NCBI GenBank assembly: GCA_023140255.1
Contig: JAGLLX010000010.1
Coordinates: 19,774 to 83,773 of the forward strand
Reading direction: 5' to 3'
Origin: Minisyncoccota bacterium
GTDB lineage: Bacteria; Patescibacteriota; Minisyncoccia; Phycocordibacterales; UBA12079
Length of the DNA stretch: 64,000 nucleotides
Shown here: positions 4,440 through 63,457 of the stretch, piece after piece
Layout: every line of letters starts with the position of its first letter
Position numbering within the stretch: the stretch's first letter is position 1
Notes under the pieces: model-generated
Told to the model about the DNA's origin: nothing
The model's input: the letters and a program-made list of their open reading frames with translations, nothing else
The model's database searches: none
Made by a program: the position numbers and the translations under genes

Positions 4440-4877
4440 ATGGAATTAACCGAAAATAAAAAAACTCCTCTTAAAAAAGCGGTGTTTAAAACAATTCAAT
4501 CATTTAAAATCTCTCTTCCTATTATCATAGGGGTTCTTCTTTTAGTTAATTTAATAAATGTTCACGCAAAAGATTATTACATGAAATTATTTACTGGAAA
4601 TTTAATGTGGGATTCCCTGATTGGAACCTTAGCAGGAAGTATTTCCTTAGGGATTCCTTTAACCAGTTACGTTATCGGAGGAGAATTATTAAAAGAAGGA
4701 ATCTCTTTAATCGCTATTACTGCTTTTATTTTAAGTTGGACTACTGTTGGAATAGCTATGTTGCCTTTAGAAATAAAATTTATGGGAAAACGCTTTGCTT
4801 TTGTCAGAAATTCAGTTAATTTTGTTTTTGCAATTATTATTTCTATTTTGGTTATTTTAACTCTTTCTATTTTATAA
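4440..4877 (+). CDS. predicted permease, subunit 1 of a split two-gene permease
   Basis: Hydrophobic 145 aa protein. Its stop overlaps the start of the next hydrophobic ORF (ATGA at 4877), resembling split DUF318-type permeases (family assignment tentative). Confidence 0.45.
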   Translation: MELTENKKTPLKKAVFKTIQSFKISLPIIIGVLLLVNLINVHAKDYYMKLFTGNLMWDSLIGTLAGSISLGIPLTSYVIGGELLKEGISLIAITAFILSWTTVGIAMLPLEIKFMGKRFAFVRNSVNFVFAIIISILVILTLSIL

Positions 4878-21191: not shown

Positions 21192-21353
21192 ATGAATCCT
21201 GTTAGATGTTTAGAGAAAATAATAAATTTATTTAAATATAAAAACGGGACCAAAAACATTATTAGTTTAATTTAAAATTATTTACTTTTTGTAAATTATG
21301 AGGGACTTGTCCCGTTAGAGATAATTTACTAGAGGTAAATTATCTCTAACGGG
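21192..21353 (+). promoter_or_regulatory. leader element copy 1: mini-ORF plus inverted repeat abutting the kinase start codon
   Basis: Mini-ORF 21192-21275 (27 aa, MNPVRCLEKIINLFKYKNGTKNIISLI). Then hairpin ATTATTTAC-TTTTT-GTAAATTAT. Then perfect inverted repeat CCCGTTAGAGATAATTTAC-tagag-GTAAATTATCTCTAACGGG ending immediately before the kinase ATG at 21354. Confidence 0.6.
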
Positions 21354-23615
21354 ATGAAAATAAAAACAAAAATAATTTTACCAATAATTTTAGTGGCTGT
21401 AATTGTATTATCAACAGCAACTTTTTATTCATATTTTTTTAATGTCAATACTTTAAATACATCAATTGGGGAACACCTAAATACAACTGTGTCTTCAAGG
21501 TCTCATCATATTGATACTTTTATAGAAGAATTAATAGGAAAAATAAAAATAGCAGCCACGCAAGAAAACTTGACCAACGAAAAACTAGAAAAAATAAAAA
21601 ATTCTAACAGAGAATTTTCAGAAGTGTTCTTGGTAAATCTTGATAAAAAAATAATTAAATCTTCAAGACAAGAGTCTATAGGCTTAGATTGTTCTATTAA
21701 TGATTATCTTGTTAATAAAAAAGATAATGTTTATATGAGAGATGCTTATATTTCTAAAATAAACGAAGAACCATCCATTGCTATTGCTATTTCTCACAAC
21801 AAAGACATATTAATCATTAGGATTAATTTGGAAATTTTAAATGATGTGACTACAAACAAAACAGGATTAGGAAATACTGGTGAAGTATATTTAATTAATA
21901 GTGCTGGGTATACCATTACTCCCCTACAATTTAGTGAAGACACTTTTTTGAAAACAAAAATAGAATCTAAAAATGCTAAGAGTTGTTTAGACACACTAAA
22001 AAACGAAACTGAACATACTGAATATAGAGGAGGGTCTGCAATATATACAAATTATAAAAAAATTGAAGTTATGGGCTCTTACCATCCCTTAAGTATAATG
22101 AACTGGTGTATCTTAGCTGAAATTGATAAATCAGAAGCATTAGCTCCAACAAAAAACTTATTAAAATTCTCTATTATAAGAATTTTGATTATCTTATTTA
22201 TATTTTTTATACTTACTTATTTGATAGCCAGAACTATTAGCAAGCCAATTATTATATTAAGCCAAGGGACAAAAATAATTAAGAACGGTAACTTAGACCA
22301 CAAGGTTGGAACCAATTCAAAAGATGAAATTGGAAGTTTATCAAGAGATTTTGATGAAATGACCGTTGCAATTAAAAAATCACAAATAGAAATTGACAAA
22401 AAAGTTAAAGAGCAGACAAGGGAAATAATAGAAAAACAAAAAGATATTGAAAATCAACAAGAAGCTATCCTAAATGTACTAGAAGATGTAGAAAATGAAA
22501 AAAAGAAAACAGAAATTGAACGAGATAAAATAGACGCTATTCTTCATAGTATTGGTGATGGAGTTTTTGTAGTTGATAAAGATAAAAAAATTACTATTTT
22601 TAATAATATTGCTGAACAAATATCAGGATTTAACAAAGAAGATGTGTTAGGAAAAAACTATCTAGATATTTTGAAATTTATTCATGAAAAAGACAGAACT
22701 CCTAATAATGATTTTATTGAAAAAGCTTTTTCTTTAGGGAAAATTCAAATGATGAAGAACCATACTTTACTTATTAAAAAAGATAAAAGTGAAGTTCCTG
22801 TAGCCGACAGTTCTGCTCCAATAAAAGATAGTGCTGGAAATATAATTGGATGTATCGTTGTTTTCAGAGACGCGACAGCTGAAAGAAAAGCTGAACAAAT
22901 AAAATCAGATTTCGTGTCTATCGCCTCTCACCAACTAAGAACTCCTTTAACGGGAATTCAGTGGGTAACAGAAAGACTGTTAAAACATTCAACTGCTTTG
23001 CCAGAAAAAGAGCAGCAATATATTAAAGATATTAACCTTTCTTCCAAAAGACTATCCACCCTTGTAGACAGTCTATTAAATGTTTCTAGAATTGAAGGAG
23101 GAAAAATAACTATAAAGCCTGAAAAAATAGAGTTGATTGATTTTATTAAAAGCTATCTAACAGAGACTAATCCTTTAACAGAAGCAAAAAATATTAGTTT
23201 AAAATTTAATACACACCCAGAAAATTTAGAAATATTGACTGATCGTTCAGGTATAAGAAATATTGTTCAGTCCTTAGTCTCCAATGCGATTGAATACACA
23301 CCTGAAAATGGAAATATAGAAGTTTCTGTTGAGGACAATGTAGAAAAAGATTCTTTCTTGTTTAAAATAAAAGATACAGGGATAGGAATTCCTTCGAAAA
23401 ACCAAGCCACTATTTTTGATAAATTTACTCGAGGAGAAAATGCCCAGCAAGTTAAAACTGATGGAACAGGATTCGGATTATACATTACAAAACAAACAGT
23501 TGATTTATTAGGCGGAAAAATAAGATTTGAATCTATTGAAAACGAAGGAACAACTTTCTTTGTAACCTTACCTAAAATATCCAAAGCTAAAGAAGGCGGA
23601 AAAAGTTTTGTATAA
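21354..23615 (+). CDS. sensor histidine kinase (Cache-like extracytoplasmic domain, HAMP, PAS, HisKA, HATPase_c)
   Basis: H-box SHQLRTPLTGI. N/G1/G2 boxes in NAIEYTPENGNIEV ... DTGIGIP ... GTGFGLYI. Confidence 0.85.
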   Translation: MKIKTKIILPIILVAVIVLSTATFYSYFFNVNTLNTSIGEHLNTTVSSRSHHIDTFIEELIGKIKIAATQENLTNEKLEKIKNSNREFSEVFLVNLDKKIIKSSRQESIGLDCSINDYLVNKKDNVYMRDAYISKINEEPSIAIAISHNKDILIIRINLEILNDVTTNKTGLGNTGEVYLINSAGYTITPLQFSEDTFLKTKIESKNAKSCLDTLKNETEHTEYRGGSAIYTNYKKIEVMGSYHPLSIMNWCILAEIDKSEALAPTKNLLKFSIIRILIILFIFFILTYLIARTISKPIIILSQGTKIIKNGNLDHKVGTNSKDEIGSLSRDFDEMTVAIKKSQIEIDKKVKEQTREIIEKQKDIENQQEAILNVLEDVENEKKKTEIERDKIDAILHSIGDGVFVVDKDKKITIFNNIAEQISGFNKEDVLGKNYLDILKFIHEKDRTPNNDFIEKAFSLGKIQMMKNHTLLIKKDKSEVPVADSSAPIKDSAGNIIGCIVVFRDATAERKAEQIKSDFVSIASHQLRTPLTGIQWVTERLLKHSTALPEKEQQYIKDINLSSKRLSTLVDSLLNVSRIEGGKITIKPEKIELIDFIKSYLTETNPLTEAKNISLKFNTHPENLEILTDRSGIRNIVQSLVSNAIEYTPENGNIEVSVEDNVEKDSFLFKIKDTGIGIPSKNQATIFDKFTRGENAQQVKTDGTGFGLYITKQTVDLLGGKIRFESIENEGTTFFVTLPKISKAKEGGKSFV

Positions 23616-28770: not shown

Positions 28771-28782
28771 TATCTAAAAATT

Positions 28783-28816
28783 AAAAGAGCGACGAGCTTT
28801 AGCTCGTCGCTCTTTT
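28783..28816. terminator. bidirectional hairpin terminator
   Basis: aaaagagcgacgagc-ttta-gctcgtcgctctttt. Confidence 0.7.
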
Positions 28817-28836
28817 AATTTAAAATCTTATTGTTG

Positions 28837-29664
28837 CTACTGTTGATTTAAAAAACCTTTTGCTTTCTTTAATTGGTCTTTAATCATACTGTCTAAAGGT
28901 TTAAATCCGTTCGCAGGTTTAGGTTTCTCTAAAAGATCACAGCTATCATCCCATTCTTCTTCCCAAGGTTGTAGACACGCTTCTTTAGCTTCACACCAAA
29001 GATAACCTGCTGATCCAATACAACCATGTTCATCTTTGTCTCCTCCAACTCTTTGTTCTTCACGAACTTCTTTTATATCCTCTCTTACATTTGCAACATC
29101 TTCTCTTCTGTCTTTATTTAATTCAGCTAATTCTTCTTTAGCTTCTTCGTCTCCGTCTTTAATTTTTTGAATTAAACCAGCTCTTTCCTCGTTAAATTCT
29201 TGTATTTTTTGCTTTCGTTCTTCTATCTTAGCCTTTTGTTCAGTTAATCTTTCCTGAAGCTTTTCTGCAACTTCTGATTTTTTAGCCTCTGCTTTTTCTA
29301 CAAATGATTCTGCTTTTGCAATCATTCGTTCAGCTTTTGCCTGAGCCTCTTCTGTATCAGCACTCTGGGCAAAAGCTTCAGCTAACTCCATTCTTCTATC
29401 AGCAAAAGCTAAGGCCTTTTCTACTCTTTTTTCTGGATTAAAAGTAAAAGTCATAGAAAAACTTTCTTTTACCCCTATCCACCATAAACCTATATTTGAA
29501 GGAACTTTAACCTCTTCTAATTCTTCTTCTAATATTAATTCTGGTACAGGCATACCTTCATCATAAACTACAGGATCAACTGGCATTTCATCTTCAGCTT
29601 GAACTGTTATAGCCCCTAAAAAAGCCATAGAAAAAATCATTGTGTATAATAATATTTTTTTCAT
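28837..29664 (-). CDS. secreted coiled-coil protein with a C-terminal Cys-containing domain
   Basis: Signal peptide, long E/K/A-rich coiled coil, C-terminal HGCIGSAGYLWCEAKEACLQPWEEEWDDSCD. Preceded by leader element copy 2. Confidence 0.6.
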   Translation of the reverse strand: MKKILLYTMIFSMAFLGAITVQAEDEMPVDPVVYDEGMPVPELILEEELEEVKVPSNIGLWWIGVKESFSMTFTFNPEKRVEKALAFADRRMELAEAFAQSADTEEAQAKAERMIAKAESFVEKAEAKKSEVAEKLQERLTEQKAKIEERKQKIQEFNEERAGLIQKIKDGDEEAKEELAELNKDRREDVANVREDIKEVREEQRVGGDKDEHGCIGSAGYLWCEAKEACLQPWEEEWDDSCDLLEKPKPANGFKPLDSMIKDQLKKAKGFLNQQ

Positions 29665-29764
29665 CCCGTTAGAGATAATCTGCTTTTGACAGATAATCTT
29701 AAGTTAACTAATAATTTTTTATTCCCGTTTTATTTATTCTTTCTAAATCTCTAACGGGATTCAT
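29665..29764 (-). promoter_or_regulatory. leader element copy 2 (minus strand): mini-ORF MNPVRDLERINKTGIKNY (29708-29764) plus the inverted-repeat arm abutting the gene ATG
   Basis: Minus-strand reading: ATGAATCCCGTTAGAGAT ... ATTATCTCTAACGGG then ATG (gene start at 29664). The upstream arm is the first six codons of the mini-ORF. Confidence 0.6.
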
Positions 29765-29849
29765 CTTTTTGTTATCCAATCATCTTTAATGATTGATTAT
29801 AAATTAATAACTATATACATATTATTTTACACCATTTTATTAAAAAACT

Positions 29850-29882
29850 AAACAGGTCAAATATGACCCGTTTAGTTTTTAC
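29850..29882. terminator. hairpin terminator
   Basis: aaactaaacaggtc-aaatat-gacccgtttagttt. Confidence 0.55.
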
Positions 29883-57226: not shown

Positions 57227-57817
57227 TTACTTATTTTCTAAAATCTTAAAATCTTTTTTAAGATCATCACGACTAAATGAGTTATATAATGCCACGGCGG
57301 GATGAAGTAAAGGAACAATTTTTATTGCCCCATAAGAAGTTTTAACCTCAAAAGATTTTCCTCTCATTTTTCCAATAGTTTCAATTTCTAAATCTAAATT
57401 AAATTTTTTCATTATATATTCTGCAGAATACCTACCCAAAGTTGCAATAATTTTAGGTTGAATAATTTCTATTTGCCTATCTAAAAAAGGCCCATAAATT
57501 TCAATTTCTTCTTCAGACGGGTCTCGATTAGCAGTTGGTCTGTCTTTAACTATGTTTGTAATATAAATATCTTCCCTTTTTAAATTAATTGAACTTAAAA
57601 GTTCATCTAAAACCCTCCCTGAAGCTCCACAAAAAGGCTGTCCTGTTTGAGCTTCATTTTTTCCAGGAGCTTCTCCCACAAACATAATTTTTGCATTATG
57701 ATCCCCTGCTCCAATGACAGGAAAAACTTTGTTTTTAATTCTTTCTGTATACAAAGGAGATTTTTTAAGATTTAAAATTTCATCCTTTATTTGTTTCATT
57801 TGTTCTGTTTTATTCAT
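57227..57817 (-). CDS. uracil-DNA glycosylase, family 4
   Basis: GEAPGKNEAQTGQPFCGASGRVLDELL motif. Preceded by leader element copy 3. Confidence 0.8.
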   Translation of the reverse strand: MNKTEQMKQIKDEILNLKKSPLYTERIKNKVFPVIGAGDHNAKIMFVGEAPGKNEAQTGQPFCGASGRVLDELLSSINLKREDIYITNIVKDRPTANRDPSEEEIEIYGPFLDRQIEIIQPKIIATLGRYSAEYIMKKFNLDLEIETIGKMRGKSFEVKTSYGAIKIVPLLHPAVALYNSFSRDDLKKDFKILENK

Positions 57818-57901
57818 CCCGTTAGAGATAATTTACAAAAAGTAAATAATCTTAATTTAATTGATAATTTTTAACCCCGCCAAATCTCTAACGAGATTCA
57901 T
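57818..57901 (-). promoter_or_regulatory. leader element copy 3 (minus strand): mini-ORF MNLVRDLAGLKIIN (57857-57901) plus hairpin plus the arm abutting the UDG ATG
   Basis: Minus-strand reading: ATGAATCTCGTTAGAGAT ... ATTATTTAC-TTTTT-GTAAATTATCTCTAACGGG then ATG (57817). Confidence 0.6.
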
Positions 57902-57905
57902 AATT

Positions 57906-58604
57906 TTAATTTTCTGGAACTATTTGTGAAATATGTTCTAAAATCATTTTAACTGAAGGAGAACGGTCATTTAGATAAGAACGACATTTATTAATTTCTG
58001 AAAAAATACTTTCTATATCATAATCTGAAAATTTTATTTTTGAATCATTTTTATATACTTCATATAAAACCCTTTCCAAATTATTTAAAAATTGAATTGC
58101 TCCAACTTTATCTGCTTTGTCCTTTGTTGTTTTAGGTAAAAATTCTTTAACTAAATCAAATCTTTGTGAAAGATTTGATTTCAAAAAATTTTCTACTATA
58201 TCTCCATAATTTAAATTATTATTTTCAAATTTAATTATTTGAAGACGAGACTTAAGAGTGGCAAGAAGATTTTCAGAAGATTGAATTATTAAAAATATAT
58301 AAACATTCTCTGTTGGTTCTTCAAACATTTTTAATAATGAATTCTGAGCTTCATTGGTAATAAAATTTGTTTGAATAATTATAATTTGTTTATCCCCTGT
58401 AATAGATTTTTTGGATTGAAAATCTTTTATAATCTTTCCATCGTCAATTCCAAAAGTAACAAAATCCCTCAAGTATAAATCAGGATTAGAGGAAACCTGA
58501 AAATTTAATTCTTTTTCTAAAAAAAATAAAAGATCTTGTAAAATTAAATCCTTTTCTCCTTCCAAAAGATAAGCATGATGTAAATTATTTTTATTTAAAA
58601 ACAT
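57906..58604 (-). CDS. holB: DNA polymerase III delta-prime-like subunit (degenerate ATPase)
   Basis: HAYLLEG ... LLKMFEEPTENVYIFLI ... LATLKSRLQ arrangement of clamp-loader delta-prime. Walker A degenerate. Confidence 0.55.
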   Translation of the reverse strand: MFLNKNNLHHAYLLEGEKDLILQDLLFFLEKELNFQVSSNPDLYLRDFVTFGIDDGKIIKDFQSKKSITGDKQIIIIQTNFITNEAQNSLLKMFEEPTENVYIFLIIQSSENLLATLKSRLQIIKFENNNLNYGDIVENFLKSNLSQRFDLVKEFLPKTTKDKADKVGAIQFLNNLERVLYEVYKNDSKIKFSDYDIESIFSEINKCRSYLNDRSPSVKMILEHISQIVPEN

Positions 58605-59707: not shown

Positions 59708-61018
59708 TTATTCTTTTACTCTTTTAATGTCTGCTCCTATTTTGAATAATCTTTTTTCTATTGACCCATACCCCCTATCAATATAATAAACATTAGTTAT
59801 AATAGATTCTTTTTCTGCTACTAAGGCTGCGATTACAAAAGCAAAACCTGTTCTAATATCTGGGCCTTCTAGCTCACAACCTTTTAGCTGTTTAGGTCCT
59901 TTAATAGTAGCTCTGTGTGAATCCCACATTTTTATATCTGCTCCCATCTTAACTAAATCACTCGTATAATTCAATCTACCTTCAAAAATAGTTTCAAAAA
60001 CTAAAGATTCACCTTGGGATTGAGTAAGAAATACTACTGTTGGAGATTGTAAATCTGTTGGAAATCCTGGATATTCGTGAGTTTTTATACTAAAAGACTT
60101 GTAGTTCTTTAAATTTTTATTATTTACTTTTAAATAATCTTTTCCAACTTCTATATCTACTCCAGAATCTTTCAACATCTCAATGACTATCTCTAAATGA
60201 CTAGGATTACAATTAGAAATTTCTAAGTCAGAAGCACACAAGGCTCCTAAAATTAAAAACGAGCCTGCTTCCAAACGATCAGGAATGGTTTCATAAACTT
60301 TGTCATTTGCTTCCAACAAAGAACCTCCTTCTATTTCTAAAACAGGGGTTCCTACTCCTTTTATCTTAGCACCACAATCATTTAACCACTCTATCAAAGA
60401 TATTATTTCCGGTTCAATCGCAACATTTTTTAAAATAGTTTTTCCTTCCGCCAAAATTCCTGCCATAATAAAAGTCTCAGTTGCAGTTACACTAGGAATT
60501 TTAAAAAATATCTTTGTTCCTTTTAATTTCCCGTCTTTTGTTTTTATAAAATATTTTCCGTCATTATGTTTAACTTTAGCTCCCATTTTCTCAAAACCTT
60601 CCAAAAATAGATCTATTGGTCGTGCTCCGATAACACAACCTCCTGGATGAGGAAAAATTAATTCTCCAAAACGAGCTAAAATTGGACCAGTAAAAATAAT
60701 AGAAGCTCTCATTCTTTTAGAAGCTTCTTCTTCAATTTCAACACTATTTATTTTTGTTGTATTAATAAAATATTCCCCATCTAATTGTTTTATCATTTCT
60801 ACTCCTAGTCCTTTAAAAATCTCATCTAAACGATTCAAATCTTCAATCAAAGGAACATTTTTAATCTTAAAACCATCTTTGAACAAAACGCTTGAAGCCA
60901 TTACAGGCAAAACAGCATTTTTAGCACCATTAACCCTTATCTTCCCAGATAAAGACTTTTTATTCCCTAATCCTTGTATTATAAATTTATCTCTTTTCAT
61001 CATGACTGAATTAATCAT
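59708..61018 (-). CDS. murA: UDP-N-acetylglucosamine 1-carboxyvinyltransferase
   Basis: KIRVNGAKNAVLPVMAS and the EPSP-synthase-like fold motifs. Confidence 0.9.
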   Translation of the reverse strand: MINSVMMKRDKFIIQGLGNKKSLSGKIRVNGAKNAVLPVMASSVLFKDGFKIKNVPLIEDLNRLDEIFKGLGVEMIKQLDGEYFINTTKINSVEIEEEASKRMRASIIFTGPILARFGELIFPHPGGCVIGARPIDLFLEGFEKMGAKVKHNDGKYFIKTKDGKLKGTKIFFKIPSVTATETFIMAGILAEGKTILKNVAIEPEIISLIEWLNDCGAKIKGVGTPVLEIEGGSLLEANDKVYETIPDRLEAGSFLILGALCASDLEISNCNPSHLEIVIEMLKDSGVDIEVGKDYLKVNNKNLKNYKSFSIKTHEYPGFPTDLQSPTVVFLTQSQGESLVFETIFEGRLNYTSDLVKMGADIKMWDSHRATIKGPKQLKGCELEGPDIRTGFAFVIAALVAEKESIITNVYYIDRGYGSIEKRLFKIGADIKRVKE

Positions 61019-61076
61019 ACGATTTTTTAAAGAAATTTACAATTGATTTTAATTTAAGTAATGGTAGAATTAAAAA

Positions 61077-63299: not shown

Positions 63300-63331
63300 A
63301 AGTGTTTTTTATTAATAAAAAATTATCTATT

Positions 63332-63351
63332 TAGTTCAATCGATTGAACTA
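63332..63351. promoter_or_regulatory. 20-bp palindrome TAGTTCAATCGATTGAACTA, copy 2 (about 35 bp upstream of the gene start)
   Basis: Identical to copy 1. Confidence 0.6.
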
Positions 63352-63395
63352 TTATTATTTTAATTTATGAGATTAGACTTACTATCTCTTGTTTT

Positions 63396-63415
63396 TAGTT
63401 CAATCGATTGAACTA
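63396..63415. promoter_or_regulatory. 20-bp palindrome TAGTTCAATCGATTGAACTA, copy 3 (within the 29-bp direct repeat 63387-63415)
   Basis: TCTTGTTTTTAGTTCAATCGATTGAACTA shared with copy 1. Confidence 0.6.
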
Positions 63416-63457
63416 TTTTAATCATTTTGAACAATTAAAATTTAAATATCGTTCTTT

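Follow-up and report, generated by a model that had tools for sequence, protein, structure and literature searches.

A probable non-autonomous mobile element inserted at the start codon of a uracil-DNA glycosylase gene in a Minisyncoccota genome

In the 64-kb window analyzed here, by which we mean the whole stretch of Minisyncoccota DNA under study (64,000 nucleotides), the gene encoding uracil-DNA glycosylase (UDG) is directly preceded by a short repeat that recurs in front of a secreted-protein gene and a histidine kinase gene. A preliminary description had read this repeat as a portable cis-module, composed of a mini-ORF, a hairpin fused to CTCTAACGGG and then the ATG, and the locus raises the question of whether such an element is a regulatory leader or a piece of DNA that arrived by insertion. 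All the described parts are present, on the minus strand, and the repeat is not a product of chance: the 19-mer GTAAATTATCTCTAACGGG has three exact matches and one match with two mismatches in the window and none in 100 shuffled sequences, and the 5' part of the element, ATGAATCCCGTTAGAGAT, is likewise repeated. The downstream genes have no common function, in agreement with the initial observation that UDG is unrelated to the other two targets.

The repeat before UDG is a real element that spans positions 57813-57901 of the minus strand, including its flanking duplications (Table 1). It follows the holB gene, whose stop codon lies 4 nt (AATT) before the old UDG start codon, and precedes an intact gene for a family-4-type uracil-DNA glycosylase. 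Read on the minus strand, the locus runs TAA, AATT, ATGAAT, CTCGTTAGAGAT, TTGGCGGGGTTAAAAATTATCAATTAAATTAAG, ATTATTTAC, TTTTT, GTAAATT, ATCTCTAACGGG and ATGAATAAAACAGAAC, with the CTCTAACGGG end falling at 57818, directly before the UDG ATG. The mini-ORF opens with ATGAAT-CTCGTTAGAGAT, which matches the 3' end (ATCTCTAACGGG-ATGAAT) in inverted, complementary form, so that the element is bounded by 13-nt terminal inverted repeats, and ATGAAT is present as a direct repeat on either side, the 4-bp duplication being TGAA; the preliminary description mentions neither feature. Together, the inverted ends and the target duplication indicate that the element arrived by insertion. An empty allele of the UDG junction would read AAAATTATGAATAAAACAGAAC, and the identical insertion is found in contigs from two other samples that encode an identical UDG protein. 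The interior hairpin is best explained as a degenerate version of the 5' arm lying inside the element (compare GATTATTTAC with GATAATTTAC, from the perfect palindrome of positions 21310-21354), and nested or duplicated arms are frequent in other copies (L030, L066, L101).

Table 1. Coordinates in the 64-kb window of the element before UDG, its neighboring genes and its sister copies
Feature	Positions	Strand	Remarks
holB gene (DNA polymerase III delta', PF13177), upstream of UDG	57906..58604	-	stop TAA 57908-57906
Old UDG start codon ATG (57901-57899), overlapping left target duplication TGAA (57900-57897)	57897..57901	-	now start of the mini-ORF
5' terminal inverted repeat T-CTCGTTAGAGAT	57884..57896	-	one mismatch to the family consensus Y-CCCGTTAGAGAT
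Mini-ORF MNLVRDLAGLKIIN plus stop (57859-57857), 14 codons	57857..57901	-	old ATG read through the 5' arm into the interior
Interior hairpin ATTATTTAC-TTTTT-GTAAATTAT	57828..57850	-	3' half continues into the 3' arm
3' terminal inverted repeat ATCTCTAACGGG-A	57817..57829	-	last base is the A of the present UDG ATG
Right target duplication TGAA	57813..57816	-	flanking direct repeat
Uracil-DNA glycosylase gene, 196 aa, PF03167	57227..57817	-	full length, intact; ATG 57817-57815
Sister copy before 275-aa secreted-protein gene	29660..29764	-	
Sister copy: old ATG	29762..29764	-	
Sister copy: left target duplication TGAA	29760..29763	-	
Sister copy: 5' arm	29747..29759	-	
Sister copy: 3' arm	29664..29676	-	
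Sister copy: right target duplication	29660..29663	-	
Composite sister copy before sensor histidine kinase gene	21192..21358	+	
Composite copy: flanking TGAA	21193..21196 and 21355..21358	+	
Composite copy: degenerate outer 5' arm	21197..21209	+	followed by interior
Composite copy: short perfect palindromic element	21310..21354	+	

The window thus holds three copies of the element, before three unrelated genes. The copy at 21.3 kb is composite and ends in a perfect 20+20-nt palindrome directly before the ATG of the histidine kinase gene. Weaker arm matches at 4763/4921, 60036/60189 and 33282 lie inside genes and were set aside as chance. Other repeats were also noted. The 275-aa secreted-protein gene is flanked by palindromes of 17 and 21 nt (window positions 29843-29880 and 28778-28821); the first of these is 94% complementary and the second perfect, and part of 29843-29880 scored as terminator-like. 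The longest inverted repeat of the window (63307-63440, 45-nt arms, 78% complementary) contains TAGTTCAATCGATTGAACTA twice and is unrelated to the UDG element. Directly left of the 5' arm, copies lacking the left duplication carry the sequence GGGAC(Y)TGT, both in the window (21302-21310) and elsewhere (L119:749-757, L030, L010, L089, L110, L056, L113). This sequence resembles a truncated 3' arm tail (GGG-A) followed by CTTG and then T, which would be the junction of two tandem or nested elements, and it can pair by G-U wobble with the right-hand AUGA.

The preliminary description had proposed checking whether UDG orthologs carry the leader, and we compared the locus across relatives. The murA-mreB-holB-UDG-alaS neighborhood is conserved in four of them, with UDG proteins 82-87% identical, and none of the four syntenic loci has the element upstream of UDG. 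Similarly, no copy was detected at 80 further UDG loci from metagenomes, with up to two mismatches allowed per arm. The empty sites of L129 and L123 begin with ATGAATAAAACAGAAC and ATGAATAAAAAAG, respectively, which is the window sequence minus the element and one TGAA. The reverse case is found at the murA start, which is filled by a variant copy in L119 and empty in the window (61000-61040, minus strand). The absence of the element at UDG orthologs, together with its presence at unrelated genes, at promoters and within coding sequences, favors a mobile element over regulation; this is the outcome that the preliminary description had itself named as pointing to mobile-element behavior.

Two of the relatives have other sequences at this position. 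The closest UDG relative (87% identical) has a different inverted-repeat element of about 140 nt directly before the UDG ATG (L118:3855-4003). Its ends, ACCCTGTTAAATAA ... TTATTTAACAGGGT, are alike in their CCC...GGG style, with different arms and no clear duplication, and the same locus has an extra PD-(D/E)XK gene between holB and UDG. Another relative has about 140 nt of GC-rich, apparently structured sequence separating these two genes (L120:3760-3900), with no Rfam match at the gathering score.

To delineate the family, we scanned one genome per species (GTDB representatives) with the pattern CGTTAGAGAT-N40-70-ATCTCTAACGRG, obtaining at least 114 loci; the arm pair of the family can also be written YCCCGTTAGAGAT ... 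ATCTCTAACGGGR. Because this pattern required exact arms, arm identity across copies is partly built in. Among the matches listed, interiors are unrelated, either AT-rich or with two GC-rich hairpins, and measure 40-72 nt, for a total element length of 62-94 nt; the only ORFs are by-products of the junctions, and there is no transposase gene. Host GC content ranges from 28 to 61% among these matches, and the host labels are mostly Patescibacteria (Paceibacteria, Saccharibacteria, Nomura-, Terry- and Kaiserbacteria, and others). The remaining labels among the matches listed are Omnitrophota, Planctomycetota, Elusimicrobiota, Nitrospiria, Gammaproteobacteria and, once, Methanosarcinales; bin labels can be wrong, and Omnitrophota is the one host outside Patescibacteria that was confirmed. 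Several copies per genome occur elsewhere, as in L046, with three within 8 kb. Sisters of the same subfamily as the window copies, about 90% alike, precede genes encoding a SpoU methyltransferase (L047), RelA/SpoT (L090) and an MBL hydrolase (L105) in other Paceibacteria. Arm variants also exist: the copy at the murA start in L119 has the arms TCCTTTAAAGAT/ATCTTTAACGGG, with compensatory arm changes (L119:700-800).

Alignment of the junctions of 113 copies among the matches listed revealed a consistent boundary. The base outside the arm is Y on the left in 96% of copies and R on the right in 97%, the two pairing with each other, and the next four bases form a direct repeat, T-N-N-A, that is 81-87% identical per position, as against 18-28% in other registers. 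The sequence of this duplication varies from copy to copy, with TGAA, TAAA and TTGA the commonest and TTAA rare, and the outermost flanks show a weak preference of about 70% for R on the left and Y on the right. The position of the termini and the 4-bp length of the duplication are fixed by copies ending in C...G at start codons (L016, L028, L035, L054, L107), where the left junction reads ATGAAC and the right one GTGAA, the start codon having changed from ATG to GTG, so that its first base derives from the element. The simplest reading of these alignments is an element of the form Y-CCCGTTAGAGAT...ATCTCTAACGGG-R, with 13-nt ends and a TNNA target duplication, which would insert into the loosely palindromic target RTNNAY.

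Copies are also found inside genes. Each arm can be read without interruption in two of its three frames, as PVRD...ISNG or PLE...SLTG, and contains a stop codon in the third. In some cases the downstream protein takes its start codon or N-terminus from the copy, as in MKISNG-M... (RNase R, LeuRS), ...KKSLTGFKP (IleRS) and ...ISNGVDW (RodA), and others lie in frame within genes (L036, L021, L040, L069). In L021, from a bin labeled Planctomycetota, the copy lies just after codon 2 of MiaA (L021:5508-5573), and in L036 it is in frame inside an Omnitrophota spermidine-synthase-like membrane protein (L036:4672-4737). Three homologs of the latter protein carry the insertion, open and in frame, with a drifting interior (PVRD-MTPKVSGRPAFGGA-ISNG, RTPKAAERPANGGA and RSPLGDRFLSFSF), and an 80%-identical homolog on a 191-kb Omnitrophota contig lacks exactly this 24-aa segment. 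The homologs with and without the segment demonstrate a true insertion, translated rather than removed from the RNA, outside Patescibacteria. Intron-like removal from RNA was considered and rejected for the coding copies, which are in frame and stay free of stop codons while the interior drifts. One subfamily has an in-frame ATG exactly 18 nt before the gene ATG (TTATGRAA-ATCTCTAACGGG-ATG, giving MKISNG-M...; L010, L056, L089, L110, L093, L016, L067, L068, L079, L091, L096, L114), at which gene callers may add residues to the N-terminus or the true start may come from the element.

The distribution of copies with respect to genes is far from random. Exact abutment to the start codon of a long ORF was found for 40 of 106 copies among the matches listed (41 in a recount, about 38%), involving about 35 unrelated target genes that include aminoacyl-tRNA synthetases, RNase R, ribosomal proteins, MurI and RelA/SpoT. 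A further signal is the promoter: 18 of 104 copies among the matches listed (about 17%) abut a -35 hexamer with a good -10, as in TTGACA-16-TATAAT, compared with 2.6% of control RTNNAY sites. At start codons and -35 boxes alike, the duplication ensures that the side nearer the gene retains an intact signal. Shine-Dalgarno-like motifs are rare in the window, where they precede 2 of 53 genes, and ATGAA(A/T) opens 17 of the 53. A TATAAT-like box lies 5-15 nt before the ATG in many genes, and this spacing suggests mRNAs with a very short leader or none. Since so many genes begin with ATGAA(A/T) and Shine-Dalgarno sites are nearly absent, start codons are abundant matches to the preferred target; they are also among the few sites where insertion is survivable, and target preference together with purifying selection explains much of the bias.

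These two factors may nevertheless not suffice for the whole of the placement bias. The interior faces the same way relative to the gene in 6 of 6 copies of the window subfamily, each of them at an A|TGAA site, and in about 12 of 12 copies of the AACGG...TTATGRAA subfamily, in both cases among the matches listed. Constant orientation points to selection on expression after insertion and, taken together with the strongly non-random placement, it indicates that such selection, that is, some function, may shape which insertions survive.

As RNA, the UDG copy is predicted to fold with a 14-bp closing stem in which the first two bases of the UDG AUG, A and U, take part (ΔG -24.9 kcal/mol, z -4.8, equaled by 0 of 200 shuffles), and the 29.7-kb copy has the same fold (z -5.2). 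In an alignment of five subfamily copies, the long stem is paired in all and never varies, and this invariance means that it carries no information on selection for structure. The inner hairpin is paired in five of five aligned copies, with two compensatory double changes, both in the copy at 29 kb. Where the left duplicate is retained, start-codon copies all encode M(N/D/R)PVRD. Its first residue comes from the old ATG and the others from one or two bases of the target followed by the 5' arm, after which come 6-33 unrelated codons. The mini-ORF is an insertion footprint, a by-product of start-codon duplication, and not a conserved leader peptide. Searches against Rfam 15 returned no match at the gathering score in the whole window, and two copies searched at E-values up to 10 gave only chance-level matches, such as RAGATH-6 (21 bits against a threshold of 170). 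Furthermore, neither a promoter inside the UDG copy pointing at UDG nor a terminator was found.

Together, these results lead us to conclude, with a probability of roughly 85%, that the element before UDG is a MITE, a non-autonomous transposable element about 80 nt long, that inserted at the start codon of the gene. Weighing against this conclusion are the strongly non-random placement of the copies, the compensatory changes in the inner hairpin of the 29-kb copy, an arm identity partly imposed by the scan pattern, and the failure to find a parent element. The family shows inverted ends, a variable target duplication, small size without a transposase, dispersed copies and both filled and empty sites. 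Insertion would have occurred into A|TGAA|T at the UDG start, with TGAA duplicated through a staggered cut and repair. As the last base of the element is an A, the right junction rebuilds an intact ATGAAT... UDG frame, and the left duplicate of the start codon now opens the 14-codon frame into the element that was described as a mini-ORF. The hairpin that had been described as fused to CTCTAACGGG would be formed by the extended 3' terminal repeat and, as its partner, a decayed 5' repeat lying inside the element.

Movement would depend on a DDE-type transposase acting in trans. No autonomous parent was detected in the 8-kb flanks of the at least 114 loci (about 1 Mb), in the window or in viral contigs, and no distant arm pairs were found in the loci of the genome scan or in those of the UDG relatives. 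Similarly, no transposase is recurrent among 644 flanking ORFs, the recurrent families being housekeeping ones (aminoacyl-tRNA synthetases, RodA, RNase R), so that mobilization in trans is what we infer. Single arms in viral contigs are at chance level, and two apparent pairs, of 4035 and 1089 nt, proved to be homologous phage portal/terminase regions.

The principal alternative is a dedicated cis-regulatory RNA leader, in which the stem would hide the start codon, translation of the peptide or pairing of the 5' arm with CGGGG would open it, and copies would have been recruited to different genes for their co-regulation. Several of the observations above are what such a leader would predict: a stem that takes in the AU of the AUG, with a fold much more stable than those of shuffled sequences, a constant orientation to the gene within subfamilies, and a genome in which start structure should matter because Shine-Dalgarno motifs are so rare. 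An alternative 7-bp helix, between the 5' arm and the internal CGGGG/AACGGG, is moreover 94% paired in the five aligned subfamily copies. Nevertheless, we consider this explanation improbable, given that the element is missing from all of the about 84 orthologous UDG loci, that target duplication and inverted ends speak for arrival by insertion, and that the same arms occur at promoters and in frame within proteins. The peptide is shared only in its arm-encoded part, MxPVRD, the stem is invariant and hence without covariation, no Rfam family matches, and the genes downstream lack a common function. The proposal of a portable cis-module consequently divides in two. Portability is borne out, more strongly than first proposed, by the inverted ends, the target duplication, the unrelated genes and the many genomes involved, but on the evidence from the peptide, from Rfam, from the search for promoters and terminators and from orthologs, a dedicated leader or cis-regulatory module is not supported as the element's reason to exist.

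Three genes of the window have a perfect dyad of 12-20 bp immediately before them, as would also be expected of a DNA operator, a palindromic transcription-factor site defining a regulon. Such an operator is very improbable for a family whose arms lie 40-72 bp apart around unrelated spacers, whose 4-bp flanking duplications vary by copy, and which is absent at orthologs and found within coding regions and in several phyla. The size of the imperfect hairpin (60-90 nt), its conserved ends and its variable center recall a site-specific recombination site, such as an integron attC or a RAYT-mobilized REPIN, and the arms contain GTTAGAG and CTCTAAC, which resemble the attC core. The attC core consensus is GTTRRRY / RYYYAAC; in attC sites, which lie in cassette arrays beside an integrase, the inverse core RYYYAAC comes first (5') and GTTRRRY last (3'). 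In the element this order is reversed, with GTTAGAG 5' and CTCTAAC 3'. No integrase family is recurrent among flanking ORFs of at least 150 aa, no cassette-like arrays occur in the flanks, and variable 4-bp target duplications are unexpected for attC or for IS200/RAYT-type movement. Arm order and the target duplications led us to reject attC and REPIN/RAYT alike, and this explanation is very improbable.

On the reading of the element as an inserted MITE, the insertion probably affects UDG translation. In the mRNA, the arms would pair and cover the new UDG start codon. Ribosomes that finish holB probably restart at the old ATG, 4 nt beyond its stop codon. Since Shine-Dalgarno sites are nearly absent and unstructured starts are relied upon, pairing of the two arms is expected to mask the new AUG. 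A ribosome that reads the mini-ORF through the 5' arm would unzip the stem and end at the stop codon at 57857, and might re-initiate about 40 nt downstream. Coupling of UDG translation to the upstream gene by such re-initiation is a tentative proposal, to which we assign somewhat less than even odds; otherwise the insertion may be neutral or mildly harmful and do no more than lower UDG expression.

A broader interpretation, which we regard as doubtful, is that of an undescribed, multi-phylum palindromic mobile family built to live on expression signals, with copies possibly co-opted as translation modules. In this view, the target duplication joined to the terminal base restores both kinds of signal, start codons as A or G + TGNN and -35 boxes as G + TTGAC, the arms are open in two of three frames, and the arm-arm stem would tie the downstream gene to uORF translation, or interiors would donate the start (MKISNG-). 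If this were true, UDG output would be tied to the translation of an upstream replication gene.

Whatever its effect on UDG, the common module before three unrelated genes has the properties of selfish DNA and reveals a streamlined genome that tolerates insertions. Patescibacteria are usually described as poor in mobile elements, and the family reported here is widespread among them and found also in other uncultivated phyla. It appears to be undescribed: a full-text search of the literature for the arm sequences returned only unrelated primers and genes, keyword searches on MITEs in Patescibacteria or at start codons found no description of this element, and Rfam has no such family. The exact placement of copies on start codons and -35 boxes, in a genome where Shine-Dalgarno sites are nearly absent, provides a natural test of translation start. 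Copies can also generate annotation artefacts, in the form of spurious short ORFs (MNPVRD...) and false N-terminal extensions (MKISNG...).

Among known systems, the Correia elements (CREE) of Neisseria, ERIC, RUP and MITEAba12 are alike in being small and devoid of ORFs, with inverted ends, a short target duplication and dispersed copies, as well as in co-transcription with neighbors, the potential for a long RNA stem and presence/absence between relatives. The likeness is one of description; the ends of the UDG element differ, and its family duplicates TNNA (4 bp), in contrast to the TA of Correia elements. Unlike these elements, many copies of the UDG element lie exactly on a start codon or -35 hexamer, the signal being rebuilt by the duplication, and the family occurs in several phyla rather than in one genus. 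Rickettsia palindromic elements (RPE) are likewise palindromic selfish DNA that is found in frame in genes and translated, again a likeness of kind, but the UDG copy lies in front of a rebuilt start codon and not inside a gene, and the hosts are free-living or episymbiotic uncultivated lineages, not Rickettsia. The ends of the UDG element, (Y)CCCG...CGGG(R), and its 4-bp duplication also recall the CC(C)...(G)GG ends and 4-5-bp duplication of the IS1380 family and the piggyBac superfamily, and the piggyBac end, CCCTAGAAAGATA, loosely resembles CCCGTTAGAGAT, which offers a lead; the target duplication is nonetheless TNNA, with TTAA rare, and no transposase was found linked to the UDG-element ends. 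Finally, in erm-type leader-peptide and uORF sequestors, as at the UDG locus, a short uORF overlaps the stem strand that hides a downstream start, and its translation would open the stem; here, in contrast, no stalling or sensing feature was identified, conservation at orthologs is absent, and the uORF is a duplicated start whose peptide is not conserved.
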